Shown: in pieces, positions 1 through 15,786 of the stretch | Layout of the letters: every line of letters begins with the position of its first letter | Numbering within the stretch: the stretch's first letter is position 1 | Virus record (IMG/VR): IMGVR_UViG_2563366923_000005 | DNA length: 16,693 nt | Source of the DNA: a virus | Taxonomy: Duplodnaviria > Heunggongvirae > Uroviricota > Caudoviricetes | Direction: 5' to 3' (one strand) | The notes under the pieces: generated by a model | Seen by the model: only the letters and a program-made list of their open reading frames with translations | Told to the model about the DNA's origin: nothing | Database searches by the model: none | Position numbers and translations under genes: made by a program

Positions 1-309
1 TTAGTACTCAGGAAGGTTTTCTAAGTTATCCTTGGATGTACCATTAGGTCTAGTAGTAATGTAATCAGTACCGTTGACACGGTCCTTAACCACTTTTTGA
101 CCTTTCTTCCACTTACCGTCATCACCTTTGAAAATGGTGTAAAAGGTATAGCCGCTATCGATTTTATTCACTACCCACTGCCGTGTTTCTGATGTCCCTT
201 CTCCAACAGTATCGCCATTATCGACATGCACATACACATGGGTAATGTGAGTGTGTTTATCGTTATATCGGACTTTAGAAATAAGGTAATCAGCCCATTT
301 ATCAGTCAT
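1..309 (-). CDS. Small hypothetical protein, DUF3892-like by recollection; probable island cargo
   Basis: Complete 102-aa ORF (ATG at 307-309, TAA at 1-3). About 35% GC in a sampled 60 nt, versus GC-rich head genes. Contains an HITHV motif. Function unknown. Confidence 0.45.
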   Translation of the reverse strand: MTDKWADYLISKVRYNDKHTHITHVYVHVDNGDTVGEGTSETRQWVVNKIDSGYTFYTIFKGDDGKWKKGQKVVKDRVNGTDYITTRPNGTSKDNLENLPEY

Positions 310-459: not shown

Positions 460-2121
460 TCAAATCCCATTAAATAAAGCCAGTCGCTCTTTGTGACTGT
501 CGCTCATATCGAAAGCAAAATCTTCGTGTTCTGCCTGGAATGTGCCGAACGCCATGAGTGCAGAAACCGCCGGGTCTATCTTGTTGGAGGATTTCTTTTT
601 GTTGGGTTTGATATTGGCGTTGGCGTCGGACTCCATCACCACGTTACCAATCGCCCAAGCCAGAACCGGATCGCCACGATGGCGCACCACCTTGCGGTTA
701 ACAAAAACCTCAAAAGATTTCGCTACCGGACTGAATTTCAGATAGGTTTGCGGGAACGGCTCCACATCGAGGCCGGCCCCCTGTAACTGGGTTCGCAAGT
801 GAGTGGCGTTCCACGTATCAAAGCCCACCAGCCGGATATTGAATGTTTCAGCATCGCGCAGGATATCGTCACGGATGCGGTCATAGTCGATACAGTCGCC
901 GGGGGTGGTTCGTATCCAGCCCGCTTTTACCCACTGGCGATAGATGGCGCGGTTTTTGTTAGCAACGTTAAGTAGCTGCGCTTCGGGCAGATAGTGCCGA
1001 GTAAGAAGCCTGATCTCGCGTTCAAACGGGAAAGCGTAACTCACGCTGGTAATATCGCTGGTTGAGGACAGGTCAAATCCGGCGTAACACTCCATCCCGA
1101 CCAGATCTTCTTCGGCATAATCGAGTGCACAGGCATCCCATGCCCCGGCACCCATCCACGGTGTAGAACCCTGACACCAGATATTGAAACGCTTGGTCAG
1201 CATCTCCACCCATTGCGACGGTATACCCCGCGCTTTTTGGATGGTGGATTCCAGCTTCGCCGCGTCAACGGACACATGCAGGTTAGGGTTGGCCTTGATC
1301 CACATTTCAGGCTGCTCAACCTCGCTTTCGTCGTCCAGCTCGTAGATCAGGACAAACAGCGAATCGTTGCTCTCTTCCCCGGCCAGAATCTGACAACAGT
1401 AGTCGTAATGCTGTTTACAGGCTGAGACAACGTTACTCCCGGCGGTCGTTATGGCGAACAAAATAGCCTCAGGACGTGCGCCCATACCCAGCTCAAGGGC
1501 GGAATAAACGCCGTTATCCGGGTGAAGGTGGTACTCATCGACAATCGCTAGGCTGGGGTTAGTCCCTTCAATGGTGGACGCTTTCGCCGCCAGCGGCTTT
1601 AGCAGGCTGTTGCTCTTCGGGAAAATGACTTTATGCGCCTGAATATTTACGCGCTTTTTCAGCGGTTTTGACAACAGGCACATCTGGCGGGCATCGTCGA
1701 ACACGATTCGGGCCTGATCCCGGCTCACCGCCGCCGTATAGATATCCTGCTGGCCCTTCTCCATTACCAGAAACCAGTTAGCCAGCATGGCGGCCACGGT
1801 GGATTTGGCATTCTTGCGCGGCACCTCAATAAAGGCGCTGCTGTACTTACGGCGGCCTGTCTCTCTGACTTTAAAGCCCAGCAGGTTAGCAAAGGCGAAC
1901 TGCTGCCACGGTTCCAGATCGATTGGCTGGCCCCGAAGCGGGCCTTTGACGTGAGGACAGAGCCGCGAGAACGCAATAAACCGCTCTACGGTCGCCGTAT
2001 CGAACTCATATCGGGGGTCATTCAGGTCTGAAAAGTACCTTTCCACGGCCTGTTTTACGCGCTTACAGGCCGGAATTTCGCCCGTTTTTATCGCATTTGC
2101 GTACTCATTCCAGACGGTCAA
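460..2121 (-). CDS. terL: Phage terminase large subunit
   Basis: 553-aa ORF with a P-loop-like segment (EVPRKNAKST) and typical length. The only possible start is TTG at 2119-2121, since an in-frame stop lies at 2143-2145 with no ATG or GTG between. It is preceded by GGAAGAGGAGGA and overlaps the terS 3' end by 17 nt. Confidence 0.9.
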   Translation of the reverse strand: MTVWNEYANAIKTGEIPACKRVKQAVERYFSDLNDPRYEFDTATVERFIAFSRLCPHVKGPLRGQPIDLEPWQQFAFANLLGFKVRETGRRKYSSAFIEVPRKNAKSTVAAMLANWFLVMEKGQQDIYTAAVSRDQARIVFDDARQMCLLSKPLKKRVNIQAHKVIFPKSNSLLKPLAAKASTIEGTNPSLAIVDEYHLHPDNGVYSALELGMGARPEAILFAITTAGSNVVSACKQHYDYCCQILAGEESNDSLFVLIYELDDESEVEQPEMWIKANPNLHVSVDAAKLESTIQKARGIPSQWVEMLTKRFNIWCQGSTPWMGAGAWDACALDYAEEDLVGMECYAGFDLSSTSDITSVSYAFPFEREIRLLTRHYLPEAQLLNVANKNRAIYRQWVKAGWIRTTPGDCIDYDRIRDDILRDAETFNIRLVGFDTWNATHLRTQLQGAGLDVEPFPQTYLKFSPVAKSFEVFVNRKVVRHRGDPVLAWAIGNVVMESDANANIKPNKKKSSNKIDPAVSALMAFGTFQAEHEDFAFDMSDSHKERLALFNGI

Positions 2122-2461
2122 GCTCGTCCTCCTCTTCCGTTTCTACCGGGTTACGGCGGCGGCTTACCGGATCAAAGCCCAGCAGCGACGACATTTTAAT
2201 CATGATTTTTTCAGCATCGGCCTTTGCACTCAGTGCAGGATTTCGGCTCTCGCCCCCCTGGCTGTTAACAATGCTGAACCCACGGCTGGCAAGGTCTTCC
2301 ACTGCTTTGCGGTACATCGAATAGTTGACGCAAAAAAGCTCAAGGTTGTTCCAGTCGGCGGGTGTCAGATCGCCACGCTCGGCCAGTTGCTTCGCTTTCG
2401 CTTTCCACTGCTGCGCGGCTAACTCATCAAGGTAAGCTGGCGGTTTTGGTGGTCTTGCCAT
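2105..2461 (-). CDS. terS: Phage terminase small subunit (P27-family-like)
   Basis: 118-aa product starting MARPPKPP (ATG at 2459-2461), with a pattern typical of P27-type small terminases (NPALSAKADAEKIM, FDPVSRRR). The ORF-track extension up to 2629 is G-rich and judged spurious. Confidence 0.8.
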   Translation of the reverse strand: MARPPKPPAYLDELAAQQWKAKAKQLAERGDLTPADWNNLELFCVNYSMYRKAVEDLASRGFSIVNSQGGESRNPALSAKADAEKIMIKMSSLLGFDPVSRRRNPVETEEEDELDRLE

Positions 2462-2736
2462 AAAAATTTCTCGTTTCCATCGCGTTTTATTTTCAAAAAA
2501 ATCACCGTGCGTAAAAATTTGAGGGGGCGGGCGGTGCCTGGCACCTTGAGGTTTGTCCTGAAAACCTCCCCCACCCCGTCCATGCGGCCTGTCAGCGGTT
2601 GCGGAAGCATTCCCGCAACTCCCGTTCACGCTCGCTCATACGCTGCACAGGCTGGCGCTCATTGCGTCTGCTTCGCCCCTGCATGAAGCCATCACGGCAG
2701 CGCATCAATGATCGGTACAGATTCACCACGTCTTTC
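2462..2736. other. Candidate cos / packaging-site region between HNH gene and terS
   Basis: 275-bp non-coding gap in the position where HK97-type genomes carry cos. It holds a GC-rich block at 2521-2578 with a perfect palindrome GGTGCC-T-GGCACC (2533-2545) and an inverted repeat GAGGTTT-N6-AAACCTC (2548-2568), flanked by a G-rich tract (2521-2534) and a C-rich tract (2565-2578). Confidence 0.35.
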
Positions 2737-3180
2737 TCATTCATTTCTGCCCTCATACATCCAGTCATTGCGATGGGCTGCACGCTCTTCCTGCTCTCGG
2801 TACAGCCCTGCCTTACGGTTCGCTTTGGTGATGGGGTCTTGCTGCGTGGTCTTCTGGTTATGATGCATCTGGCATAACGGCTGGTGATTCCACTCAGGCC
2901 AGAACAGAACATCATCACCGCCGTCGATAGGGATGATGTGATCGACAATCTTTGCAGGAACGTAGAGGCCCAACTTCTGGCACTCGACACATAGCGGCTG
3001 ACGTTTCAGATACTGAGCGCGGTACTTCTCCCATGATGCTGAGTAACCACGGGCGCGACGGTGGCCGCGTCTGGCATCTTCCGCCCGCCAGGCTTCGCGC
3101 TTGTGCTCATCGCACTTACCAGACTTCACCCGCTTATTGCATCCCGGCTCAGTGCACCGGCGCATTGGTTGCCACGGCAT
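2737..3180 (-). CDS. HNH endonuclease (terminase-associated)
   Basis: 147 aa from ATG at 3178-3180, overlapping the connector stop (ATGA). Cys clusters (CTEPGC, CDEH, CVECQ) and an HNH-like core (LCQMHHNQK). Position between connector and terS is typical of HK97-like packaging modules. Confidence 0.85.
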   Translation of the reverse strand: MPWQPMRRCTEPGCNKRVKSGKCDEHKREAWRAEDARRGHRRARGYSASWEKYRAQYLKRQPLCVECQKLGLYVPAKIVDHIIPIDGGDDVLFWPEWNHQPLCQMHHNQKTTQQDPITKANRKAGLYREQEERAAHRNDWMYEGRNE

Positions 3181-3479
3181 CAGTACACCCCCACATCGCG
3201 ATACACAGACCACAATGCAGAGATAGCAAGGGGGATCTCTTTCGCCTCCACATCACTAATCATCGTGCGGTATTCGTACAGTTGGGAAACGTACATAAGG
3301 CATCCGATCTTGATGGCAGGAGTAAATTCCAGGCCAGCACCGAACCGTTTACCGATATGCTTCTGGCAGACTTCCAGTGACGCTTCGATGTATGCCTGAA
3401 TCATTGCATCTTCATAGGAATCATCGTTATCGATGCGACAGTGAAGTTTTGCCTCATCAAGCCCAATTAGTTCACTCAC
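3180..3479 (-). CDS. gp6-like head-tail connector / DNA packaging protein
   Basis: 99 aa with GTG start at 3477-3479 preceded by GGGAGGG, and an in-frame stop directly upstream. N-terminus LDEAKLHCRIDNDDSYEDAMIQAYIEAS fits the gp6-like connector pattern. Confidence 0.75.
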   Translation of the reverse strand: MSELIGLDEAKLHCRIDNDDSYEDAMIQAYIEASLEVCQKHIGKRFGAGLEFTPAIKIGCLMYVSQLYEYRTMISDVEAKEIPLAISALWSVYRDVGVY

Positions 3480-3513
3480 GGCTTAAGCCCTCCCTTACAA
3501 AGCAACTCCAGCC

Positions 3514-4755
3514 TCATGACGCATCCTCCTTATTCTCAGAACCGGTACTGACCTTCACTTCCTGCTTCCATGCCTGGCTGTATTCGTCGCCCCCTTCACG
3601 CGGCGGCATCCCTTCGCGTTCGCGGGCTTCGTTCGGGTTCATGATCCCGTTCTTGATACCGCGCTCATAAGTTGCGTAACGTTCGGTTGGAGTGGCTCGA
3701 AGAAGATCGGCAGAGTCGAACTCCACCTGATAACGAATTCCGGGTACAGGCGATGCCACCAGCAACGCGGATTTAATCTGCTGCTCAAAGTTCGCCAGCC
3801 ACGGACGCATCGTCATGGTGAGAAATGCGCGGCTCGCCTCACTAAAGTTGCTGTAGGTGCTGTTGCTGTATTCCTGCAGGAAGATGGGGGACACGTTGAA
3901 CATGCGGGCAATGTCTTCAATGGAGAAGCGCCGGGAGGCCAGCCACTCAGCATCCTGATTGCTCATGCCAAGCTGCTTATAGTCCATGCCACCTTCAAGG
4001 ATCGGTGTTTTACCGGCATTTCTGGCACCTTTGTAGCGCTCAAGCGCGTCCAGCGCCTGTTTACCCTTCACACTATCGAGCCATTCAGCAGTAGTGACTA
4101 CGCCCGCCGCCATCATGCCATCTTTCATAATGCTGGCGCCGTGGCGCTGCTGGGCCAGACCTAACCCCAGCGCCTCACGGCAGATGGTGATCGGCGAGCG
4201 CCCCAGAAAACCATCATCGGTCGAGTAACGCAGGTGCAGAATCTCTTCCTGCAGGTAGGTGCGCACTGCCCCGGTAAACGGTTCAGTAACGGTGTATTTG
4301 TACTTATGCTGGCCGATACGCTCAGGAACAACCGCCCCCGGCGCATACGGATGCAGGGATTGCGGCTGGCCGTCACGGCCCCACTGGATCACCGCATAGG
4401 CGTTACCATTCAGCAGGCAATGACGCATCATCGTGCGCTTGAACTGGTAAGGCGTCTGACAGTCGTTCGGTTGCTCGTTAAGGAGAAAATCCACCGGGTG
4501 ATTGCTTAGCCACTCCCGCGCTTCTCGGCCGTTATCGTTGCGCACGCGGTAGAGGTAGCAGGGCATTGTTGCCACTGCCTCGCTGATAACTGATATGGCG
4601 TTCATGACCGCCGGCAGAGATTCCGCAGTACCGGCAGACACATATTCGCCTGATCCGGTATTTGGAATCCCTGCCATCGCCAGAAACTCATCAATCGTCA
4701 TGCTGCGCTGTTCGGATGGCTCAGATTTACGGCCAAAAGGCCAGATATTCCACAT
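3514..4755 (-). CDS. Phage portal protein (HK97 family)
   Basis: 413-aa ORF directly downstream of the protease gene with a 1-nt gap. Size and sequence character are typical of HK97-type portals. Confidence 0.88.
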   Translation of the reverse strand: MWNIWPFGRKSEPSEQRSMTIDEFLAMAGIPNTGSGEYVSAGTAESLPAVMNAISVISEAVATMPCYLYRVRNDNGREAREWLSNHPVDFLLNEQPNDCQTPYQFKRTMMRHCLLNGNAYAVIQWGRDGQPQSLHPYAPGAVVPERIGQHKYKYTVTEPFTGAVRTYLQEEILHLRYSTDDGFLGRSPITICREALGLGLAQQRHGASIMKDGMMAAGVVTTAEWLDSVKGKQALDALERYKGARNAGKTPILEGGMDYKQLGMSNQDAEWLASRRFSIEDIARMFNVSPIFLQEYSNSTYSNFSEASRAFLTMTMRPWLANFEQQIKSALLVASPVPGIRYQVEFDSADLLRATPTERYATYERGIKNGIMNPNEAREREGMPPREGGDEYSQAWKQEVKVSTGSENKEDAS

Positions 4756-4756
4756 A

Positions 4757-5317
4757 TCACAGCCCCGCTAAGTCAGCCCAGCGTCGGCGGTTATCACCAG
4801 CACGGCGCAGTTCAGGATGTTGGGAGAACAGAGAACGGTGCGCAATTTCCACGCCGGACTCAGGGTAAGCAGGCATAGAAGTAACGGTGATCTCCCGCAG
4901 CTCGGCAGCGGTAACAGTGCGAATATACGGTGTAGGAGTAATATCCCAGGACTCTTTCAGCGCACGGAATCCGAAGCTCATGCCGGAAATGTCTCCACGC
5001 TCCACCAGCTCCAGCACATCATTGCCAAGTTGGGTGTTTGGCGGGGTCAGCTCGAAACGCAGCCCGGTATCATCTTCGGACAACACCAGCGTGCCGGATT
5101 TGGTACGCCCCAGCAGTTGGGTATAGTTATGCTCGTACAGTGCACGCACATCGCTACCGGATGCCAGGCTGTCTTTAAACGCCCCCGGCGCAAACTGCTC
5201 GCGGAACTCATCCCAGATCACCTCTGACAGGCTGTTCCAGCGCACGGCATAGCCCACCAGCTTTTTGTTGCTGGCGCTCAGTTCGGAGGTACGGATTTCA
5301 AAATCGATTGTTTTCAT
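4757..5317 (-). CDS. Prohead maturation protease (HK97 family)
   Basis: 186 aa; the segment LVGYAVRWNSLSEVIWDEFREQFAPGAF matches the conserved N-terminal pattern of HK97 prohead proteases. GGAG lies 8 nt upstream of the ATG. Confidence 0.88.
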   Translation of the reverse strand: MKTIDFEIRTSELSASNKKLVGYAVRWNSLSEVIWDEFREQFAPGAFKDSLASGSDVRALYEHNYTQLLGRTKSGTLVLSEDDTGLRFELTPPNTQLGNDVLELVERGDISGMSFGFRALKESWDITPTPYIRTVTAAELREITVTSMPAYPESGVEIAHRSLFSQHPELRRAGDNRRRWADLAGL

Positions 5318-5340
5318 TGTTGGACTCCACAGAGGGCAAA

Positions 5341-5358
5341 AAGGGGCCGAAGCCCCTT
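5341..5358 (-). terminator. Intrinsic terminator-like hairpin between capsid and protease genes (probable partial terminator)
   Basis: On the minus strand: AAGGGGC-UUCG-GCCCCUU followed by UUUGCCC, so a 7-bp GC-rich stem with a UUCG tetraloop and a run of 5 U. It sits in the 51-nt gap after the capsid stop. Confidence 0.45.
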
Positions 5359-5368
5359 AAACGTCAGA

Positions 5369-6535
5369 TCAGGAACCGGAACCGGAAAGCTCAAGCACCT
5401 TGATGGCGTTGGAGTCCACCACACCACCGCCTAGGTATTTATCGGTGTGCACCTTGTAGAAACCAGGTTCGGTGATGTTGTCGGGGCGGGTACGCACGCC
5501 AGTGGTGTGATCCACGATGAAGTAACCGCGCTTAAAGTCGCCGACTGCCAGGAACGCTTCACCCGCAGCCGCATCAGGCATGGTTTCCAGGTATTGAACC
5601 GGACGGCCAAGGAGGGTATCGGGAGAGTCAGCGACGAGACGATCACGCCAGATGTAATCCCCGTTGCCGTTTTTCAGCTTTTGCAGCGTAGCGGCAGTGT
5701 TGGAGTTCATCACCCATACGGCATTTTTGCGGTATTTGGCTTTCAGCTTATACAGCAGGTCGATAAGACCATCAGAGGAAACGGCAGCAGCCTCCATCTT
5801 CTCCAGCGTGCCGAACGGACGGGTTTTATCGCTGGTGGCCGCACGCGGATAGGACAGGAACCCTTTGGATTTTTTATCACCGTCGCCGTTCACAAAGTCG
5901 GTTTCTTCGGTAGCAGTGAAGGTGTCGGTAATTTCGGAAGACAGCCAGCCCAGAATATCAACTTCGGAGAAGTCGAGAATTTCCTGAGTGGTTTTCGGGT
6001 AGGCGTAGATCGGGTTGAGTTTGATATCAACGCGCTCCATCTTCGGTGTGCTGGTTTCGGTACGCGCTTCGCCTTCGGTGCCGCGCTTAACGGTAGTGCC
6101 GCCCACTGACACCAGCTTCTGGTATTCGTTGGTTTTGGTGGTCTTCACCGTGGCGATGGAGCGCATAACGCTGTCATCCTGCAACTGGCGCATGATCTCT
6201 TTGTCCAGCTCAGGGATAACGGTATAGCCGCCGTCAGCCTGCACTAACGTGGAGAGAGAGCGGGTATCGCCGGTCATGATGTAGTGGCGCAGCTCATCGT
6301 TGCTTACACCTTTACCTTCAACAGAAGTACCAGGCAAATTGCGCTGATCGTCGGCGACGGCCTCAAGGCGGGTAATTTCAACTTCAAGCGCATCAGCCTG
6401 GGCGCGGAGTTCGTCGAACTGCTTTCCCTCTTCATCGTTCAGGCTTCGCTTTTCGCTGTCAGCTTTTTCCAGCATGGAACGCATCTGGGTTTTGAGTGCG
6501 GTTTTCTGCTGGCGTAATTCAAGTAATTTCTTCAT
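5369..6535 (-). CDS. Major capsid protein (HK97 fold) with N-terminal delta (scaffold-like) domain
   Basis: 388 aa from ATG at 6533-6535 (MKKLLELRQQK). The N-terminal ~100 aa are coiled-coil rich, like an HK97 delta domain, followed by a capsid-like body. The track extension to 6652 is judged spurious. Confidence 0.9.
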   Translation of the reverse strand: MKKLLELRQQKTALKTQMRSMLEKADSEKRSLNDEEGKQFDELRAQADALEVEITRLEAVADDQRNLPGTSVEGKGVSNDELRHYIMTGDTRSLSTLVQADGGYTVIPELDKEIMRQLQDDSVMRSIATVKTTKTNEYQKLVSVGGTTVKRGTEGEARTETSTPKMERVDIKLNPIYAYPKTTQEILDFSEVDILGWLSSEITDTFTATEETDFVNGDGDKKSKGFLSYPRAATSDKTRPFGTLEKMEAAAVSSDGLIDLLYKLKAKYRKNAVWVMNSNTAATLQKLKNGNGDYIWRDRLVADSPDTLLGRPVQYLETMPDAAAGEAFLAVGDFKRGYFIVDHTTGVRTRPDNITEPGFYKVHTDKYLGGGVVDSNAIKVLELSGSGS

Positions 6536-6797: not shown

Positions 6798-7310
6798 ATG
6801 GACTTCGATTTTGATGATATGGCATACCCGGATATTTTTTTAATTTCCGGCGAGGAGTTTAAAGGAAGCCGGAACACAGGAAAAAATCAGGTAGATATCC
6901 CGTTTACTGACGAACCGCAAATTGAATTGGGCGATATTCTGATTCAGAAGATTGGAAGCCGTGAGTTAAGCCTTAAAGTTGTCGATCTTTCAATATCAAA
7001 GAATGGAACGCTGAACGTGGGTACAACGCATCCTCACTTACTGACGTTATCCGTAGAGAATCTTTCTTCCAACGCACACAGGACAGCAAAGAGTATGAAT
7101 ACTTTTAATATTGGCTCCGTCAGTGGTGAGCAAGTTCAAATAGGTGAAAGTAATCATATGCTGGTGAATATCAGTATTACTGAACTTGTCGAGAAAGTGG
7201 CTAACTCTGGCGATCCACAGGCTAAATCAATGTTGAAACAGTTACTGGAAAATAGCACCGTTGCCAGTATCGTTGGCGCTGGCGCTTCTGCGCTATTAGG
7301 TCTGCTTTAA
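6798..7310 (+). CDS. Hypothetical protein with C-terminal hydrophobic Gly/Ala-rich tail; accessory gene on the opposite strand
   Basis: 170-aa ORF with GGGGGA 4 nt before the ATG. C-terminus TVASIVGAGASALLGLL looks like a single tail anchor or glycine-zipper segment. About 43% GC in a sampled 60 nt. Only sizeable plus-strand gene inside the island besides the RHH gene. Confidence 0.6.
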   Translation: MDFDFDDMAYPDIFLISGEEFKGSRNTGKNQVDIPFTDEPQIELGDILIQKIGSRELSLKVVDLSISKNGTLNVGTTHPHLLTLSVENLSSNAHRTAKSMNTFNIGSVSGEQVQIGESNHMLVNISITELVEKVANSGDPQAKSMLKQLLENSTVASIVGAGASALLGLL

Positions 7311-7357: not shown

Positions 7358-7693
7358 TTATTCTTTATCCAGCCCCCACTGATAGAAAGCCCAGCTTGCC
7401 GTTGATTGTGCGCTATGGATAGCGTTCTCAAGGCCAGAGGTTGGGTACGACAAATCAGCCGCCATCCTCTGTAGAAGATCGAGGTAAGCGCTGGCGTCTT
7501 TCGACAACTCTTGCTCCCCTTCTTCCAGCCCAGACTGGTACGATTCCAGATCAAGCTTTTCAGAAGTGACAAACGCACTCAGAGCCAGAAAATCCGTCAC
7601 TGTAATCTCATCTTTATTTGAAAGCTCATCAACGGCGCTGTAGAGAAACTTAAGATCGCTCATATGCCCGTTATCTTTGCCAATCAGTTTCAT
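7358..7693 (-). CDS. Hypothetical acidic protein (accessory / possible interference or immunity function)
   Basis: 111-aa ORF with AGAGGT 6 nt upstream of the ATG at 7691-7693. Acidic and probably helical, with no recognisable catalytic motif. Lies immediately downstream of the iteron origin. Confidence 0.6.
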   Translation of the reverse strand: MKLIGKDNGHMSDLKFLYSAVDELSNKDEITVTDFLALSAFVTSEKLDLESYQSGLEEGEQELSKDASAYLDLLQRMAADLSYPTSGLENAIHSAQSTASWAFYQWGLDKE

Positions 7694-8034: not shown

Positions 8035-10170
8035 TTATTCTTCTCCATCTTCCGCAACCTGGTGAAGCACATAAACGTTGATTTGACGCCCATCAATACG
8101 CGGGGATTTCTGCTGGTATCCACGCCCGCTGGACGGCTCAGAAAGCAAGCCAGCAGCGGCAAGCACGCGGGCAAACTGCCTGGCGTTAAAGCCCTGAGCT
8201 ATCTCCTTCTCAAACGTTGCGGGGAACGTATAGAACACCAGCGGCGAATCATCATGGCTGCTTTTGCGCTTTCGATACCCGGCCAGATCGCGAATCGGCA
8301 TACTGGACGGATCATAGGGCAACGGTGCAAAGCGGCTTAAACCGTAGGCATTCAGGAACGCCTCGCACTGCTCGATGATCTGCTGGTGCTCTTTGTTACC
8401 CGTGCCGAACTCTTTCACCCAGGCGTTAAAGCTATGCTGGATAGCGTCACGGCTGGCCTGTTCACTCCATCCGGTGATTGATGCACCAGTTACCAGCGCG
8501 GCTTCGAGGATTGCAAAGCGTTCGGCCACGCGGTGTACCTGCTCACCGTAATCCGCCGGGATGAGGCCGCGCCAGCGCGTTTGCGCGTCACGCACCGCCT
8601 GTTTAGCCTCCTGCTGGTTAGCCGCCAGCCATTTAACCCACTCACGCCCCGCCGCCCCGTGGTTATCAATCCAGGCTTCTTTCAGTGCGTCAGCATGAGC
8701 CTTGCCGTTTGGCAGACCGTTAAAGGCCGTCGATTTCTCCATAGGGATGTTGAGCAAGCGCACCAGTTGGCCCGCTTTCACTTTCAGCCCACCAGCAGCC
8801 AGGAAGGTTTCAATATCCATTTCCCCGGTGCTGATCGCCACAGTGCGCCAGCGTTTAAGCTCCCGATTGCCGCCCTCTTTGGCTCCCTGCAACTTTCCGG
8901 CACCGTTAAACAGGGTGTAAGCAGACGTGGCAACATCTTTGGCACTGCTGCCCTGTCCTACCTCATCAAGCGGTAACAGGCTGTCGTTATGCGCCTCCGC
9001 TTCGTTTGCTATGCCAAGCGCAGTACCGTACCAGGTAAGCCGCAACGCATCAGGCTCACCCCACAGGCTGCTCGCAATATTGGCGGTAGTGGTCTTACCG
9101 GCGCTCGACTGCTCGAACAAATGGACGCCGAAACCATCAGCACCCACCAGGCCAATAAGCGGCGCGGATAATGCCGCTGCCACGCCCAGCATCATGGACG
9201 GATTGCCCCCGGCCAGACGGGCGACGGAATCCCGCCAGGTGGCAGCAGTACCAGCAATGGCATACCCGGAAGATGCAGCGCTGCGACCGTTAAAGAGAAT
9301 GGGCGTCTCTGGATCACCAATCACTTCACCATCAGGCATGATATATGCGCCATGATGCCAGCCAGTGGTATGGGTGATAATCCATTCCCGATCAGTGCCG
9401 CTTTGCTGCAACCAGTCGGCCAGAATCGCCCGGAAGGTGCTTTTAGTGGTCACATTCACCCCACCAGCTTTAAGTGAGCGCCAGCCGTCGCGCTCACCGA
9501 TATCAGCACAGGGGATCGCCCTGGTAATATCTTCATGGCCACGCGGCGAACGCCAGCGCAAAACAAGATAGCGCTCTGCCCCGTCACTACCGGAGCCGAC
9601 CACCTCAAGAGGCGAGCACAGCCACGTTTCGTTATTGATGATCTCGCCACTATCCTTGTCCACCTTTGGCGTGATCCAGTACAGGCCATCGCTCCGGCTC
9701 TCCACGCGGGGTTTGAGTTCATCGCCCGGTTCAGGCTTTGGCTCCCGTTTTTTTACAGGCAGGTTCACCACAATGCTTTCCCCGCGTTCGGCCTCTTCTT
9801 TGAGACGTGGAAGCCTGCCCGTCCAGTCCTCCTTCGGCTGAGGCTCAAACATGCCATTAAACAGCCTGGCCTCTTTCACATCCGCCAGCGCCAGTTTGGT
9901 TGCGATAGTGCTTATCTGCATTTCGGAAAGTTCGCCAGCGCGGATCACACGAACACTGCGACGGCCGTTATCAACAATGTTTAACCGTTCCAGTTCCGCA
10001 AGTTGCCTTTTACCCAGATAAACAGGCGGTACATCATCCCATGCCCTTTTACCTTCGCTCTCGATCCAGTGCTGCACATGTGAATAGGCATCTTCACCCG
10101 CAAAGATAATCGCCTCTGTAAATTTATCTTTCGGCAGGAATTTAATATTCGGGGCATTCTTCATCTTCAT
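8035..10170 (-). CDS. Replication initiator / primase-helicase (DUF927-type P-loop NTPase)
   Basis: 711 aa with Walker A motif FEQSSAGKTT. Size and position (last gene of the operon, next to the iterons) match satellite or PICI Rep proteins. AAGGTG RBS; start overlaps the upstream gene's stop (ATGA). Confidence 0.85.
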   Translation of the reverse strand: MKMKNAPNIKFLPKDKFTEAIIFAGEDAYSHVQHWIESEGKRAWDDVPPVYLGKRQLAELERLNIVDNGRRSVRVIRAGELSEMQISTIATKLALADVKEARLFNGMFEPQPKEDWTGRLPRLKEEAERGESIVVNLPVKKREPKPEPGDELKPRVESRSDGLYWITPKVDKDSGEIINNETWLCSPLEVVGSGSDGAERYLVLRWRSPRGHEDITRAIPCADIGERDGWRSLKAGGVNVTTKSTFRAILADWLQQSGTDREWIITHTTGWHHGAYIMPDGEVIGDPETPILFNGRSAASSGYAIAGTAATWRDSVARLAGGNPSMMLGVAAALSAPLIGLVGADGFGVHLFEQSSAGKTTTANIASSLWGEPDALRLTWYGTALGIANEAEAHNDSLLPLDEVGQGSSAKDVATSAYTLFNGAGKLQGAKEGGNRELKRWRTVAISTGEMDIETFLAAGGLKVKAGQLVRLLNIPMEKSTAFNGLPNGKAHADALKEAWIDNHGAAGREWVKWLAANQQEAKQAVRDAQTRWRGLIPADYGEQVHRVAERFAILEAALVTGASITGWSEQASRDAIQHSFNAWVKEFGTGNKEHQQIIEQCEAFLNAYGLSRFAPLPYDPSSMPIRDLAGYRKRKSSHDDSPLVFYTFPATFEKEIAQGFNARQFARVLAAAGLLSEPSSGRGYQQKSPRIDGRQINVYVLHQVAEDGEE

Positions 10171-11124: not shown

Positions 11125-11314
11125 TGAGCGCCCCCTTTTTATCCTGCTCCAGCATAAAGGTGGCAATATCGCCAGAAATATCACGGGCCAGATCGATGAG
11201 GTTATCCCTCTCGTGACCTGAAATTTCGCAGTCTGAAATCACCAGAAGCAACGTTGCCAACTGACAAGCGCGGGACGTGGCTTTTTCTCTGCCAAGAGTT
11301 TCAATGTCATACAT
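11117..11314 (-). CDS. Hypothetical small protein
   Basis: 65-aa ORF whose start overlaps the Icd-like gene's stop. Part of a chain of overlapping start/stop codons. Confidence 0.5.
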   Translation of the reverse strand: MYDIETLGREKATSRACQLATLLLVISDCEISGHERDNLIDLARDISGDIATFMLEQDKKGALNG

Positions 11315-11519
11315 GTCGCACCTCCAGCATCTGAAATGCGTGGAACGGCAGGCGGGCAGCGAAAATAAGAGTTACGCCGGGCATGGTGTCGCGGGCTTCC
11401 CGTTCACTGGATGCGTTGACGTAAATCACCAACGGTTTGGCGGTAGGGTAGCGCTCAGAGGCGGAGAGAAAACGCCATGTAAATTCAGGGCGAGTTTGGG
11501 TAGACTGATTGTCAGCCAT
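11307..11519 (-). CDS. Icd-like small protein (P4/P1 family, putative cell-division inhibitor homolog)
   Basis: 70 aa from ATG at 11517-11519 (MADNQSTQTRPEFTWRF...FAARLPFHAFQMLEVRHV) with GAGGT RBS. The FTW and FAARLP pattern matches Icd-like proteins of P4-like elements as I recall them. The 250-aa track ORF is a spurious upstream extension. Confidence 0.55.
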   Translation of the reverse strand: MADNQSTQTRPEFTWRFLSASERYPTAKPLVIYVNASSEREARDTMPGVTLIFAARLPFHAFQMLEVRHV

Positions 11520-11709
11520 AACTGTTACCTCACTTAACGGTTTGTGGTCAGAGGCCCGGTTAGTGTTCCTAGCACTACCGGGCTTCGCACTTGAAAGGTG
11601 TATGTCACCTTTAATATTCAAACTAGCCCAAAGTGAAATACACTTCAAGCCTTTTTCTTTTATTTTTTTTGCGTATACTGAAATACACCTAACATAAGGA
11701 GTTTCAGTA
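11520..11709. promoter_or_regulatory. Divergent promoter / operator region
   Basis: Bulged palindrome GCCCGGTTAGTG-N7-CACTACCGGGC (11554-11583); 7-bp inverted repeat AAAGGTG-N5-CACCTTT (11594-11612); direct repeat TGAAATACAC at 11634-11643 and 11679-11688, the second next to a TATACT -10-like hexamer (11674-11679); long T tract at 11651-11670. Confidence 0.45.
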
Positions 11710-11895
11710 ATGGCAACAGGTGCGAAGAATGCAAAGTCACAAATGACCACAGTTCGAATCCCCCATGATGTGATGGAAGATATCGAACTTTTTAAACATG
11801 AAGGTGAAAGTACCGCAGGGTTTCTTGTCACTGCTGCGAAAGGCGAAATCAAACGCCGCCAGCGCCAAAAGGCAAAAGAAGAGCCAAAATCCTGA
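11710..11895 (+). CDS. Small ribbon-helix-helix-like DNA-binding protein (putative island regulator)
   Basis: 61-aa ORF with AAGGAG 9 nt upstream. TTVRIPHDVMEDIELFKHEGESTAGFLVTAAKGEI fits a beta-strand plus two helices (RHH/Arc-like), followed by a basic tail. Divergent from the replication operon. Confidence 0.55.
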   Translation: MATGAKNAKSQMTTVRIPHDVMEDIELFKHEGESTAGFLVTAAKGEIKRRQRQKAKEEPKS

Positions 11896-11902
11896 ATAAA
11901 AT

Positions 11903-11925
11903 CAGCGGGCGCAGAATTGCGCTGG
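11903..11925. terminator. Weak hairpin downstream of the RHH gene
   Basis: GCGCA-GAAT-TGCGC stem-loop (alternative CAGCG/CGCTG pairing) 8 nt after the stop codon. The U-tract is poor, so terminator function is uncertain. Confidence 0.25.
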
Positions 11926-12018
11926 CTCATTCTTTGACCACCAGCATTAACCCTGGTATGCTTAATCTGTTTCGGTTTTTCGTAGTGACATTGGCAGCTC
12001 TGCAAAGTTGCCTTTGTT

Positions 12019-12798
12019 TTATTCAGCGTCAGCATTCGGCACCTCCGGCAATACGCCACCAGCGATCAGTTTCTTCGTTAACCACTGCTCCCCCTTCCCC
12101 GTCAGCATCGTTGTGAATGAGGCTCTTACTTCGCCATTCGTTTCATACGTTCCCTGGCGAACGGCAAAATAACCGCTATCGATATAACGCTGCATAGGCA
12201 GGTTGTGGCGCTGGCCACCGTTGATGAGAATCCCCTGTTGCCTCATCCAGCCGAATAATTTGAAGGGGCCAAGCCCTACGGCTTTGGCATAGTTGGAAAT
12301 GGAAATACCCTTGCTGATCTCCGCAACGCGATCAGCGAAATCAACTTTTGGCGCAGCGGCCACCAGCCGGTTTTCAAGTTCGCTTGCCTTTTCGGCCAGA
12401 TCAGCAGCAAGGCGCAGGGCTTCCGGTAACGTCTGGGGGATATTAGCGGCGGCTTTTGCCTGGCGTTCGCAGTTGATGAAGTAGCGGCGCACCTCCCGCC
12501 CTTTTTCGTTGCGCTCAACCATTGCCAGCTCTTTACCCATGTCGATGGTGATCAGGTAATCATGTGCAATTTGTTGGCGATATTTTGCGCTCCCCGAAAC
12601 GGGGGCGCTCAAATTTTCAACCACCGTAAAATCTACACCAGCAGTAAAACCATACTGGCTGATACGCCCCTTAATCCATGTGGTGAAATCACGCCCAACG
12701 CCGAGAAACTCATGGAGTTTTTTTGCACTGACCAGCGATACCGTCACGCCGCCAATATTTCCGGGGTTAACCGGAACCAACTCATTTAATTTTTGCAT
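12019..12798 (-). CDS. Phage antirepressor (AntA N-terminal domain + KilAC C-terminal domain)
   Basis: 259 aa from ATG at 12796-12798. HDYLITIDMGKELAMVERNEKGREVRRYFINCERQ matches the AntA signature; C-terminal NLPMQRYIDSGYFAVRQGTYETNGEVRASFTTMLTGKGEQWLTKKL matches the KilAC/ANT pattern. Confidence 0.85.
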   Translation of the reverse strand: MQKLNELVPVNPGNIGGVTVSLVSAKKLHEFLGVGRDFTTWIKGRISQYGFTAGVDFTVVENLSAPVSGSAKYRQQIAHDYLITIDMGKELAMVERNEKGREVRRYFINCERQAKAAANIPQTLPEALRLAADLAEKASELENRLVAAAPKVDFADRVAEISKGISISNYAKAVGLGPFKLFGWMRQQGILINGGQRHNLPMQRYIDSGYFAVRQGTYETNGEVRASFTTMLTGKGEQWLTKKLIAGGVLPEVPNADAE

Positions 12799-12808
12799 AG
12801 CGCCCCCC

Positions 12809-13093
12809 TTACGCGGATTTACGGTTGTAAGGGGTGTTGACGTTCTCAACAGCAGGTGGATTGCGAACCCACCAAAGAACATCTGACAGAAGCCATGCGC
12901 AACTATTACGGCCAAAGTGGCAGCGTGGCGGGAATTTACCTTCGTTCTCCATATACCAGCGGGTGGAACGGGAAAGGCTGGTTATTTCGAAGCATTCACT
13001 TTCACGAATACGGCGATCAAACTTAATGCCATATTCTGCGAGAATGGTGCGGCGTTGTTCTGGTGTTGGCGGGGTAAAACGAGTATTTGACAT
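12809..13093 (-). CDS. alpA: AlpA-family transcriptional regulator (excisionase-like)
   Basis: 94 aa; LSRSTRWYMENEGKFPP...GRNSCAWLLSDVLWW fits the AlpA HTH pattern. GGAGGA RBS. Immediately upstream of the antirepressor gene. Confidence 0.8.
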   Translation of the reverse strand: MSNTRFTPPTPEQRRTILAEYGIKFDRRIRESECFEITSLSRSTRWYMENEGKFPPRCHFGRNSCAWLLSDVLWWVRNPPAVENVNTPYNRKSA

Positions 13094-13187
13094 ACTTCCT
13101 CCACTTAACGCAATCAGAAGGAGCCTTTCCTGTCTGTTCTTGCGTTGTGGGGGAAGTATTTGTCTAAAGTAAATTAATAAAAATGGC

Positions 13188-13264
13188 TTCTAAAATTTAA
13201 AAAGGCGTGTTTAATTCTAAAAAGGGTAATCTAATGATTAGAACACCCTTTCTAACGTTTAGAA
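13188..13264. repeat. Cluster of TTCTAA / TTAGAA hexamers in the alpA upstream region
   Basis: TTCTAA at 13188, 13215 and 13250; TTAGAA at 13238 and 13259, including TTAGAA-CACCCT-TTCTAA-CGT-TTAGAA. AT-rich 180-bp intergenic region. Confidence 0.3.
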
Positions 13265-13274
13265 GCTACTACAA

Positions 13275-14216
13275 TTAAAACTTAAAGTGCCTACTAATGT
13301 ATGAGGTAATTGTGTCAACGCTCTTGACCGGGCATTGTCCGTCAGGAAATAAGTGCACTCTGTCGGAAAGTTCTCTGGCCCATGCTGAGAAATTGTAGCT
13401 CCCATCTTTTTTCAAGCACTTTTCATTGAAAATATCAGAATTTGTTTCTTTGAATTTTATTGCAGCACTTAAAATTAATAGTTCATTTCGTGCATGTTTT
13501 TCTTTTGCACTTTCTGAGCGTTTATTAATACTATTTTTTGAATCAGAGTCTAAATCAGGTCGTTCAATATCATTGAGCATTGGCAGCTTATCGAAATCAA
13601 GGCCGCTTTCCATAAGCCGTTTAATATCATAATTAGTAACCCATAAATCATCATACCCGGCTTCAAACTCATAAGGGTCGAAATTAAACCTCTTGCCATT
13701 AGCCTGATCGATAAAAGGTTGGGCTGGCAGAATCTGAATTACTGGAGTTTCACCGCCTGTGAGGCACGGGAAAAATCCGGGGAAAAAATCCTTCACAGGT
13801 AAAGATGACTCAAACTGATCGGGCATTACCCGCCACAGACCTAATGCAAAGCCATATCCGACAAGGAACCCTTTACTTTCTTGTTCCGTAAAGATGTCTG
13901 AACCAGATAATAGTTTATCAGGTTCAAAATAACGGCCATTAGTAAATTCAATAAAAGAGTGATTCGTTATCGCGCGGGTTTGCCCTGACATAGAATTAAA
14001 AGTACGAGGAAAATATAGTGATGAATACCAATCCTTTACATCATTAAAATCTTCACGAAGAAGGATTCGGCAGTGAAACCTTTTCAGCATCATGCTTATT
14101 TCGATTTTATTTTCAATAGCAAGGTTGATCAAATCTGACGGTTCAACCCCCAGAAATGATGCACCTCTGGACAATCTACAATATGAAAATGGAATCTTTA
14201 TTTCTTTTTCTGCCAT
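13275..14216 (-). CDS. Hypothetical protein, AT-rich cargo gene between int and alpA (candidate defence / accessory function)
   Basis: 313-aa ORF with GAGGG RBS. 27% GC in a sampled 60 nt, far below the head genes. No family recognised by eye. Contains YDDLWVTNYDIK, a D-x8-D-x-K arrangement weakly reminiscent of a PD-(D/E)xK core. Confidence 0.65.
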   Translation of the reverse strand: MAEKEIKIPFSYCRLSRGASFLGVEPSDLINLAIENKIEISMMLKRFHCRILLREDFNDVKDWYSSLYFPRTFNSMSGQTRAITNHSFIEFTNGRYFEPDKLLSGSDIFTEQESKGFLVGYGFALGLWRVMPDQFESSLPVKDFFPGFFPCLTGGETPVIQILPAQPFIDQANGKRFNFDPYEFEAGYDDLWVTNYDIKRLMESGLDFDKLPMLNDIERPDLDSDSKNSINKRSESAKEKHARNELLILSAAIKFKETNSDIFNEKCLKKDGSYNFSAWARELSDRVHLFPDGQCPVKSVDTITSYISRHFKF

Positions 14217-14308
14217 AACGCTACCCTCAACGCCCCTAATTAACTTGCGAGCCAGGCGGGTAGGGTTTCCCGCTTTTCGGTTGGCCGACCTAGACTCGCA
14301 AGACCAGT

Positions 14309-15535
14309 TTAATCTCTATTCGCTACAGTTAACAGAACCACATTTTGATGATTACCCGCAAGAAGTTCTAAGCGATCATACCACTTATTCAGCGCGTCCA
14401 GTTTTTCCGGCAGATACAGACTACGGTTATAAATCGCCATAACCCCTGGCATTGAGTGGCCCAGCAACTGTTCAACAACGTGCGGAGCTATACCCATATT
14501 ATTCATATGCGTTGCAAGCGTTCGCCGTAGATCATGCAATGTCCACGGTTCAGAATGCCCCAGTTTTTTATAAACACTACGGCCCCACTGGCTAACCGCT
14601 TCGCTATTCTTCACAACCCCAAGAAGGTAGCCGGATGATTTTGTTTCATCGTGGAGCATTTCAATAAATGAACGCATCGCCTCTGGAACTGGACGCACAA
14701 TCTTTTCACCGCCTTTACTATGCGCTTTTGGTACTGTCCACACCCACGCCTCCATATCCCATTCGGCCCACTCTGACAATCTGGCCTCCTGGGTGCGGCA
14801 ACCAAACAAAGTGGTGATCCTGAGTAAGTTTGTGTAGTAAGGCAGAAAAACATCGCCGGACGATATAGCAGCCCACAATCCCCCAACCTCTTTATCTTTC
14901 AATACCCGATCTTTTTTCGCCTGCTTTTTACCAACATCGGGAATACTCAAATCTTCAAGGGCGGTACTGACGGCGTAACGGCGAACGCGGCAGAATTTCA
15001 GAGCCTGCTTACACATCTGGAATACATAACCCGCAGCAACTGGCGTTTTCTTTTTCATTCTGTCGAAGCAGTCAAGCCAGTATCGGGTTTCGCAGTCAGC
15101 GAGCGCCATTTTCCCAATGTAAGGGTAAATATGTTTGCGTAGCTCCGCTTTGTGCCGCTCAACGTTCGCACGATTTTCTTCCGCATATTCGCGTATCCAG
15201 TATTCGATAGCTTCCTGCACCGTGACCGGTTTAAGCGTTTCCTGAGTAGTTAGCGCCAATTGGTGCTTTGGGTCTTTACCAGAGGCCAACCACTGACGAC
15301 ATTTATCACGCGAGGAACGGGCCTCTTTGAGACTCATATCAGGGTAGCGCCCCAGAGTCAGCCGATGCAGCTTCTGCCCGTCGAGTCGGTAAGTAAACAC
15401 CCAGCTAATGCCACCAGCTTTCGTTACCTTAGCACTCAACCCGGCACCATCAGCATAAAACTCAATCTTACTGGCCGGGATGCCATGTAATCCCTTTAAC
15501 TTCCTGTCGCTCAGTTTGTTAAGTTCGCCAGCCAT
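14309..15535 (-). CDS. int: Tyrosine site-specific integrase (P4-type)
   Basis: 408 aa; C-terminal catalytic region with WTLHDLRRTLATHM, LLGHS and AIYNRS (R, H-x-x-R, Y). Lies at the element terminus next to the chromosomal junction. Confidence 0.9.
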   Translation of the reverse strand: MAGELNKLSDRKLKGLHGIPASKIEFYADGAGLSAKVTKAGGISWVFTYRLDGQKLHRLTLGRYPDMSLKEARSSRDKCRQWLASGKDPKHQLALTTQETLKPVTVQEAIEYWIREYAEENRANVERHKAELRKHIYPYIGKMALADCETRYWLDCFDRMKKKTPVAAGYVFQMCKQALKFCRVRRYAVSTALEDLSIPDVGKKQAKKDRVLKDKEVGGLWAAISSGDVFLPYYTNLLRITTLFGCRTQEARLSEWAEWDMEAWVWTVPKAHSKGGEKIVRPVPEAMRSFIEMLHDETKSSGYLLGVVKNSEAVSQWGRSVYKKLGHSEPWTLHDLRRTLATHMNNMGIAPHVVEQLLGHSMPGVMAIYNRSLYLPEKLDALNKWYDRLELLAGNHQNVVLLTVANRD

Positions 15536-15708: not shown

Positions 15709-15723
15709 TACGGCATGAACTAA
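15709..15723 (+). other. fis: Displaced 3' end of fis (last 4 codons + stop); probable att core / right junction
   Basis: TAC GGC ATG AAC TAA encodes Y-G-M-N-stop, the Fis C-terminus as I recall it. The frame is closed just upstream by TGA at 15703-15705. yhdJ starts 85 nt downstream. Confidence 0.5.
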
Positions 15724-15750
15724 TTCAGGTTAGCTAAATGCTTGATTAAA

Positions 15751-15786
15751 AAGGCGCTACTCGGCATGGGGAAGCGCCTTTTTTAT
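15751..15786. terminator. Bidirectional intrinsic terminator (probably the native fis operon terminator)
   Basis: AAGGCGCT / AGCGCCTT 8-bp stem (15751-15758 and 15773-15780) with a 14-nt loop, A-run upstream and a T-run of 6 downstream. Confidence 0.6.

Follow-up and report, generated by a model that had tools for sequence, protein, structure and literature searches.

What does a satellite of temperate phages do with a phage antirepressor gene? The question is raised by ant, which occupies positions 12019-12798 (minus strand) of the IMG/VR virus record IMGVR_UViG_2563366923_000005 (the window, 16,693 nucleotides (nt) in all) and encodes Ant, a protein of 259 amino acids with an AntA and a KilAC domain. 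The initial annotation had placed the gene in a satellite and proposed that its product derepresses the prophage of a helper phage. We find that Ant belongs to a group of satellite proteins in which a constant AntA module is combined with exchangeable C-terminal modules, and that its target very probably lies outside the island. That this target is the lysis-lysogeny control of a co-resident phage is a reading we favour only tentatively.

The ant reading frame is uninterrupted over 259 codons, from the ATG at 12798-12796 to the TAA at 12021-12019 on the minus strand, and has a GC content of 52%. Pfam places AntA (PF08346) at residues 23-97 (12508-12732; E = 1e-23, 84.1 bits against a cut-off of 27, profile positions 1-68 of 68), within a module that spans approximately residues 1-117. 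ANT/KilAC (PF03374) follows at residues 143-244 (12067-12372; E = 5.3e-26, 91.5 bits against a cut-off of 25.3, profile positions 2-105 of 108), preceded by the linker IPQTLPEALRLAADLAEK from residue 120. The protein also matches the PHROG family phrog_63, 'anti-repressor Ant' (E = 3.9e-76), and RefSeq labels the identical gene of Escherichia coli KFu015 (WP_001547838.1) as 'phage antirepressor KilAC domain-containing protein'. With an intact frame and matches to both domains and phrog_63 far beyond chance, the full AntA/KilAC gene of the initial annotation is real. The Pfam scan gave AntA and ANT domains only, and no match to the Ash family; PADLOC and NCBIfam scans of Ant and its neighbours returned no defence or repressor family.

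A search of the PDB with the Ant sequence profile gave no match to any solved structure. The predicted structure is of moderate confidence (predicted local distance difference test score (pLDDT) 69.6), and its fold resembles DNA-binding domains of the APSES/KilA-N and MerR/excisionase types. We infer that the APSES-like matches belong to the N-terminal module and the winged-helix matches to KilAC. The fold matches agree with an old proposal, cited in the paper on the Listeria phage protein AriS (the AriS paper), that such domains are DNA-binding modules.

An alignment of Ant homologues, used as the query against IMG/VR and a collection with one genome for each species, retrieved 160 loci. A locus was assigned to a satellite context when at least one of AlpA, Icd, YlcI, orf122, a P4-like/DUF927 primase or the capsid protein of a capsid-forming phage-inducible chromosomal island (cf-PICI; PICI for the islands in general) was found nearby, as was the case for 75 of the 160. 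Aligned close homologues have a conserved N-terminal AntA half, after which comes one of two KilAC alleles that differ sharply from each other. The N-terminal module is still 49-72% identical in more distant satellites, but their C-terminal 130 residues form an unrelated non-KilAC domain, similar to the C-terminal part of phrog_2657 and, weakly, to the end of a Rha-family regulator from a phage. In the set of 75 satellite loci, the C-terminal module is the KilAC allele of the window (type 1) in 18, KilAC type 2 in one, the non-KilAC domain in 54 and of another kind in two. Rarer combinations are AntA with P22_AR_C (P0050) and pRha with the KilAC allele of the window. The alignments indicate a newly found pattern, in which satellites keep the AntA module and swap the C-terminal one.

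DNA comparison with a Kluyvera locus (L005) places a mosaic breakpoint at the domain boundary, around 12388, and homology blocks end recurrently 90-100 nt downstream of the ant stop codon (~11925-11932). In a sister cf-PICI (L025) the capsid and portal proteins are 95-98% identical and AlpA 81%, with Ant only 36% identical overall. Across loci, AlpA is 64-83% and capsid and portal 68-98% identical where Ant is only 35-49%.

The closest relative of the KilAC module is the Roi protein of phage HK022 (residues 100-234; 61% identity over 136 residues, E = 2e-58), and the module is 60-62% identical to Roi-type genes of HK620, HK75, HK140, HK542, HK633, mEpX1, several Shiga toxin (Stx) phages and Kapi1. 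Together with the linker it aligns over ~170 residues with P1 Ant1/Ant2 (Ant1 residues 172-344; 48% identity in BLASTP, E = 2e-50; 51% in hhalign, probability 99.9). KilAC type 2 has 65-70% identical counterparts in Cronobacter ENT47670, Hafnia, Yersinia, Proteus and Stx1a phages. The two KilAC alleles have their counterparts (61-70%) in different groups of temperate phages, as would fit a phage-matched specificity. The AntA module is 64-73% identical between satellites of different families, above its best true phage matches (46-58%; Moraxella Mcat28, Edwardsiella EPP-1, Bordetella phages and the AntB of Stx phages). HK022 has been documented to donate tails to cf-PICIs, and the PICI EcCIMP1 uses Kapi1 as its helper (PMC11773190).

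The order int-X-alpA-ant-...-icd-...-pri is kept in ~24 genome loci. The 14 IMG/VR loci whose full-length Ant identity is at least 82% are all cf-PICIs, on contigs of 14-20 kilobases (kb) with one of 46 kb, and two other E. coli PICIs carry an AntA-family gene after alpA, directly or one open reading frame (ORF) later. The slot is not always filled: in EcCICFT073 and in the cf-PICI of E. coli AST20, alpA is followed by ylcI on the opposite strand and then by icd, with no remnant of ant. The gene is therefore an accessory, cassette-like cargo of a defined slot directly downstream of alpA. Near-identical cf-PICIs differ in only four regions, of which the gene at this position is one; the discoverers of cf-PICIs label it 'of unknown function'.

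No close full-length homologue of Ant was found in bona fide phages, the best match being ~41% identical (Ralstonia phages). Near-identical matches in the phage database turned out not to be phage contexts; they are fragments of 2-3 kb and a 106-kb record that encloses a cf-PICI. This record (GenBank PQ569648, 'Klebsiella phage P12620-1', 106.5 kb, locus L089) was deposited as a complete phage genome with 67 annotated features only. Inside it, an Ant 98.8% identical to that of the window is accompanied by int, orf313 and primase genes of the same sizes, then by capsid, protease and portal genes. Its appearance is that of a chromosomal or chimeric assembly, not of a phage.

AntA/AntB-, BRO- and Rha-type 'antirepressor' genes have already been catalogued in PICIs and cf-PICIs (PMC13612085; PMC11773190). 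The same gene class is found in the same slot in Enterobacter cloacae cf-PICIs ('AntA/AntB antirepressor, YlcI/YnfO, Icd'; PMC13612085), in EcCIMP1 ('antirepressor'; PMC11773190) and in a PICI of O157:H7. The reports are descriptive only, and most of the catalogued satellite proteins have a non-KilAC C-terminal domain, unlike Ant. In the literature searched there is no functional test of these PICI antirepressor genes.

The element around ant can be delimited. Over its whole length the window matches the chromosome of E. coli KFu015 at 99.9% identity, and the island, 15,880 bp long, has at its borders the copies of a direct repeat (at least 64 bp) in which the 3' end of fis is included. In locus L001 the repeat copies lie at 2830-2893 and from 18710 and include the last fis codons; the attR copy, at 15709-15772 of the window, duplicates the fis 3' end, and empty-site matches begin at 15709. 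The island integrates at the 3' end of fis and regenerates that end. A comparison with 5,426 complete E. coli genomes found the fis-yhdJ junction unbroken in nearly every one, and at least 80% of the island in only six. Leftward, the island encodes int, orf313, alpA, ant, ylcI (opposite strand), an icd-like gene, four small ORFs and a DUF927 primase, then two accessory ORFs, an HK97-type major capsid protein, protease, portal, connector, HNH, TerS, TerL and a DUF3892 protein. ORF, Pfam and RefSeq annotation gave no tail or lysis gene in the island.

A cf-PICI is defined by the presence of int, alpA, primase/replicase, capsid and packaging genes, the absence of tail and lysis genes, flanking att repeats and a size of ~15 kb (cf-PICI preprint); cf-PICIs are further characterised by an induction that depends on a helper phage and on alpA, and by small capsids to which phage tails are added. 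The island has this gene content: a tyrosine integrase (14309-15535, minus strand; Pfam), alpA, a DUF927 primase/replicase (8035-10170, minus strand; Pfam E = 4.7e-50), a capsid and packaging module from TerL, TerS, HNH, connector and portal to protease and major capsid protein (460-6535, minus strand; RefSeq annotation of the identical locus), att repeats and a length of ~15 kb. The attribution of ant to a satellite, made initially from the window alone, is thus borne out by an att-flanked island with the layout of a cf-PICI.

When would Ant be made? The alpA gene (12809-13093, minus strand; Phage_AlpA, Pfam E = 2.3e-10; phrog_2790, E = 4.9e-43), which encodes the master activator, comes first in the alpA-ant unit. 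At the junction (12799-12811, minus strand), the alpA stop codon TAA (12811-12809) is followed by GGGGGGCGCT and then by the ATG of ant. The gap from stop to start is 10 nt, the Shine-Dalgarno (SD) sequence of ant overlaps the alpA stop codon, and no promoter- or terminator-like site was found between the two genes on the minus strand. Read from the sequence, ant is the predicted second cistron of the alpA unit, transcribed with alpA, and its translation is probably coupled to that of alpA. Co-transcription would imply that Ant is made when the satellite cycle is switched on.

In the Gram-negative PICIs studied, AlpA is an auto-activating master activator whose SOS-independent transcription is triggered by a lytic helper (PMC6092414; cf-PICI preprint), SOS independence being reported for alpA of EcCICFT073 (PMC6092414). 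In the window no perfect LexA box (CTGT-N8-ACAG) occurs anywhere, and no one-mismatch site lies upstream of alpA; one-mismatch sites number 10 in total against 4.9 expected. The alpA-ant unit differs in this respect from LexA-controlled antirepressor modules of the Gifsy GfoA or 186 Tum type, which have a LexA box at the operon promoter.

Does Ant act inside or outside the island? The helper target had initially been deduced from the lack of a recognisable phage-type master repressor and by analogy with the action of P4 epsilon on P2. The observation itself holds, as Pfam, NCBIfam and PADLOC scans of the regulatory-side ORFs of the island recognised no master repressor. The deduction carries little weight, since the absence of such a repressor is common to all Gram-negative PICIs: they are not known to have a global repressor and use the activator AlpA instead (PMC6092414). 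What does support an external target is the company that Ant keeps. At 92-99% identity it co-occurs with orf313, DUF6387 or other int-proximal genes, with three integrase types and different replication modules, and with YlcI proteins that are 100%, 64%, 57% or 54% identical or with no YlcI at all. No co-variation of Ant with orf313/DUF6387, YlcI, AlpA, Int or Pri was found. Together with the existence of similar satellites without ant, this points to a target in trans, in a co-resident phage or the host, and comparison of the loci places the target of Ant very probably outside the island.

Within these limits, the reading we tentatively favour, without regarding it as established or even probable, is that the target of Ant belongs to a co-resident temperate phage, whose lytic growth Ant favours. 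Switching on alpA would lead to Ant being made from the same unit. Ant would then act in trans on the lysis-lysogeny or early regulatory circuit of the co-resident phage (lambdoid HK022-type or P1-type), and this phage would be pushed into or held in lytic development, from which the satellite would gain lysis and tails. The single most likely molecular mode is sequestration of the phage immunity repressor, by analogy with P1 Ant and C1; taken by itself, we consider this mode unlikely. The supports are the structure of the alpA-ant unit, the conserved slot, the hypervariability of Ant, its independence of island partners and the satellites without ant, the homology to P1 Ant, the precedents of P4 epsilon and RS1 RstC, and the variable, phage-matched C-terminal module. 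Such a module fits more readily with a partner specific to the phage, either a repressor or a site on phage DNA, than with the conserved RecA.

The likeness to P1 is partial. The P1 record annotates an Ant1/Ant2/C1 complex that antagonises the C1 repressor. P1 Ant1/Ant2 share a KilAC module and linker with Ant, and the island has an icd-like gene, recalling the c4-icd-ant operon of P1. The N-terminal part of P1 Ant, however, has no AntA domain and does not align with Ant. P1 ant lies downstream of icd, is coupled to it and is under the control of the C4 antisense RNA, whereas the island ant follows alpA, and the island icd is located ~500 nt beyond ant, behind the opposite-strand ylcI, an order different from that of P1 immI. 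An Rfam scan found no C4/CI-type immunity RNA, its only matches being an int-alpA RNA and a sub-threshold SymR-like match. P1 Ant also targets the repressor of its own phage.

The satellite precedents concern position and activity. P4 epsilon/Ash is encoded by a satellite gene between alpA/vis and the primase, and its product renders the repressor of helper P2 inactive. Ant shares this position, while epsilon/Ash is an unrelated small protein. RS1 RstC is another precedent for a satellite-encoded helper derepressor. The AntA module of Ant is also 46% identical to AntB/ant genes of Stx phages. In the relative from the Stx phage phi24B, the ant gene is phage-borne and near int, and the C-terminal part of the protein is P22-Ant-like, not KilAC (82% identical to P22 Ant according to the authors; PMC3064807). 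Knock-out of phi24B ant weakens late-promoter activation on induction (PMC3064807), and the protein has been called a 'lytic induction enhancer' (PMC3430580).

The swapping of C-terminal modules allows a more specific proposal, namely that the slot protein is a modular 'helper-matching' device, composed of the satellite AntA and a C-terminal module captured from the Roi or Ant proteins of co-living temperate phages. The KilAC allele of the window would then serve the SOS-independent induction of HK022- or P1-type prophages and secure lysis and tails. We hold this proposal to be improbable as it stands. No prophage induction by an incoming Gram-negative PICI has been observed (PMC6092414). We set this negative aside because the E. 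coli model of that study, EcCICFT073, has no ant.

Several observations weigh against an action of Ant in favour of lytic growth. The alpA gene of the PICIs studied is activated only by a helper that is already lytic, so a helper derepressor would be redundant there. The best match of the KilAC module (61%), Roi, is a DNA-binding protein, annotated as such in several phage records. HK022 Roi, which has a pRha N-terminal domain instead of AntA and is encoded between the replication genes and Q, has been characterised as a DNA-binding protein and not as an antirepressor. It is said, in work by Clerget and Boccard from 1996, to bind DNA site-specifically and to block lytic growth in integration host factor (IHF) mutants. 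For Ant, the model likewise predicts DNA-binding-like folds in both modules. The KilAC-based arguments hold for a minority variant only, since 54 of the 75 satellite AntA proteins have a non-KilAC C-terminal domain. HK106, the proven helper of the prototype cf-PICI EcCIEDL933, has a lambda-CI-like cleavable repressor and no roi/KilAC gene; 'Roi mimicry of the helper' is for this reason untenable as a general rule. The ash gene coexists with AntA genes in other PICIs (also PMC11773190), so the two are not simple alternatives. Moreover, the only studied relative with the same architecture, AriS/A118 Gp42, is not an antirepressor and inhibits the SOS response and induction. 'Antirepressor' is a family label and not a demonstrated activity, and as the activities of the relatives differ (C1 antagonism, DNA binding, SOS inhibition), it is an unreliable guide to function.

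AriS provides the strongest of the other explanations. In this protein of Listeria phage phi10403S the KilAC domain inhibits the SOS response, probably via RecA, and hence prophage induction, and the AntA domain lowers the transcription and replication of its own phage (AriS paper). Ant could be a similar dual regulator, whose KilAC domain acts on RecA/SOS or cell division and damps the SOS response, and whose AntA domain tunes the satellite's own genes. Prophage induction would be restrained or the host response delayed, an effect opposite to the derepression initially proposed. AriS and A118 Gp42 have the same two Pfam domains in the same order and a near-equal length (259-262 residues; 259 for Ant versus 262), and Ant is homologous to such proteins over its full length: it is 34% identical to A118 Gp42 end to end (E = 7e-42, over residues 5-245) and 36% identical to the Ant protein of Javan553 (E = 1e-47), one of those that the AriS paper counts among the AriS-like proteins. 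With AntA at the N-terminus and KilAC at the C-terminus, Ant thus has the AriS-like architecture. In A118 and Javan553 the gene follows the cI/cro region and precedes the replication genes, comparable to the position of ant downstream of alpA and upstream of the replication genes.

The activity of Listeria KilAC is kept at 30% identity and with a different N-terminal domain (AriS paper), and the KilA-C domain of phi11 Gp07 causes filamentation and growth inhibition in E. coli, which points to a target conserved across phyla (PMC5944126). Exchange of the domain in the satellites is a difficulty. KilAC is replaced by an unrelated domain in 54 of the 75 loci, including sisters with 95-98% identical capsid and portal proteins, which is not expected for an activity against the conserved RecA. 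The AriS-like family of Gram-positive phages keeps KilAC constant and varies the N-terminal domain, and the satellites do the reverse. The KilAC module of Ant has a much higher identity with P1 Ant and Roi (48-61%) than with AriS-like proteins (~35%), and what the satellite would gain from such an activity is not evident. We regard an AriS-like function as possible, although unlikely.

The module folds are also compatible with a sequence-specific DNA-binding regulator of the Roi/Rha/Bro kind, which would control promoters of the satellite, possibly those of the helper, and time the icd-primase or packaging operons after AlpA with no sequestration involved. This rival, which we judge slightly less likely still, draws on the APSES/KilA-N-type and MerR/excisionase-type fold matches, although the model is only moderate (pLDDT 69.6). 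It draws further on the annotation of Roi and on the lowering of phage transcription by the AntA domain of AriS. The AntA module is 49-100% identical across cf-PICI, PICI and P4-like contexts in which Int is ~25% identical, and as ant has no intrinsic terminator behind it on its own strand, transcription of the unit may continue into the icd operon. However, the flanking layout is the same in EcCICFT073 and the AST20 cf-PICI, which have no ant, and the cycle of EcCICFT073 is experimentally complete. Since satellites work without it, Ant is not a core regulator. In addition, no island DNA motif was found that co-varies with the Ant allele; the upstream repeats follow orf313.

A third explanation, clearly improbable in our view, is that Ant is cargo for conflicts between elements and hits non-helper or competing phages through premature induction or a developmental block. 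The gene is accessory, cassette-like and part of a listed variable region; PICI variable regions often carry immunity systems, and KilAC/KilA proteins may have toxic effects on their host (P1 kilA annotation; Gp07, PMC5944126). Against this, there is no PADLOC match, ant is located within a regulatory operon outside the flanking cargo hot-spots, and no partner gene is evident. Finally, the idea that Ant antagonises an island-encoded repressor (YlcI or orf313) in a positive feedback on satellite induction, suggested by the switch-like layout in which the opposite-strand ylcI separates ant from the icd operon and by the orf313-linked palindromic repeats upstream of alpA, is very improbable, as Ant proteins 92-99% identical occur with orf313, DUF6387 or neither and with a variable or absent YlcI, YlcI is 86-90% identical beside Ant proteins that share only the N-terminal module (43-49%), ylcI is kept in PICIs without ant, and neither orf313 nor YlcI matches a repressor family; an action on an island repressor alone, the outcome that would have gone against the initial proposal, is therefore disfavoured.

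These comparisons bear on the question of which resident phages cf-PICIs can exploit. That such genes exist in PICIs was known from catalogues, and this exact gene is annotated in RefSeq. New are the rule of a constant AntA and a swapped C-terminal module, with phage-derived KilAC alleles, and the recognition that the family label cannot be read as a function. If Ant derepresses prophages, satellites would be active triggers of prophage induction, including that of Stx-type prophages, and not passive passengers; P4-like reciprocal induction by cf-PICIs with ant would be a notable revision of the view on Gram-negative PICIs. If Ant is AriS-like, satellites would damp the SOS response and stabilise co-resident prophages. 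Either outcome would give a function to a gene class found in many E. coli, Klebsiella and Enterobacter satellites, and the module-swapping pattern points to domain-swap constructs and candidate partner phages.

The surroundings of the alpA-ant unit contain further candidate control elements. The alpA leader (13098-13153, minus strand), which travels with alpA-ant in an alignment of 10 satellite leaders, has an inverted repeat CCCCCAC...GTGGAGG. Folding of this repeat would sequester the ribosome-binding site of alpA by pairing its SD sequence with an upstream anti-SD sequence. The version CCTCCAC/GTGGAGG is kept in the alpA leaders of nine other satellites, and the repeat may be a translational control point for helper-dependent activation. 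The homology block common to the window and locus L088 ends at 13160. Upstream of it, at 13160-13274 (minus strand), operator-like repeats TTCTAA-N3-TTAGAA, additional TTAGAA copies and the terminator hairpin of orf313 belong to the orf313 module and not to alpA-ant, and in L088 the repeats are replaced along with orf313. Other satellites have palindromes of the TGGATTCCA types upstream of alpA (with a 216-residue int-proximal ORF), TTCCGGAA in locus L076, or the inverted repeat CATACTGATA in locus L086. In E. coli 21AR0133, orf313 and the repeats are swapped together (DUF6387 being present instead) and alpA-ant is still 96% identical; this joint replacement suggests that the int-proximal variable gene and the upstream repeats form one regulatory or sensor module.

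The orf313 gene (13275-14216, minus strand; GC 38%; phrog_7144, E = 2e-225) could be cargo or a regulator. Pfam, including a scan of the N-terminus, NCBIfam and PADLOC gave no family for it, and an AlphaFold2 (AF2) model made without an alignment is unusable (pLDDT 39). A homologue, 30% identical, occupies the same position in the AST20 cf-PICI. On the other side of ant, the ylcI/ynfO-family gene (11710-11895, plus strand; NCBIfam NF041551, E = 1e-16) has a conserved position in PICIs and cf-PICIs, including those without ant such as EcCICFT073; a PDB sequence search with YlcI gave no match. No intrinsic terminator was found after ant on its own strand, and transcription of alpA-ant may for that reason run antisense through ylcI. 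The icd-like gene (11307-11519, minus strand; NCBIfam NF033153, E = 5.7e-17) is the first of the replication-side operon. A strong stem-loop, GCCCGGTTAGTG...CACTACCGGGC, at 11514-11589 on the plus strand gives a sub-threshold SymR-like Rfam match (32 bits, E = 0.0096, gathering score 61). Located opposite the beginning of the icd-like gene, it might act as an antisense RNA that controls this operon.

Accessory ORFs beside the packaging module lie at 6798-7310 (plus strand), 7358-7693 (minus strand) and 1-309 (minus strand), and correspond to phrog_5789, phrog_7232 and the DUF3892 protein. The positions flanking the packaging module are reported sites of cf-PICI immunity systems; PADLOC gave no match for these three ORFs. 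In Pluralibacter gergoviae ATCC 33028 (NZ_BCZS01000045, locus L002) the DNA of the int-orf313-alpA-ant block matches that of the window at 97.7% identity, and the segment after ant, with ylcI and the replication genes, is replaced. This locus is an example of intergeneric spread and modular reshuffling; cf-PICIs are known to cross from genus to genus, and all that they require of a phage is lysis and tails. Between int and orf313, at 14233-14300 (minus strand), the window contains an int-alpA RNA (RF02996; 63.6 bits, E = 1.9e-11, above the gathering score), which has been described as a candidate structured RNA.

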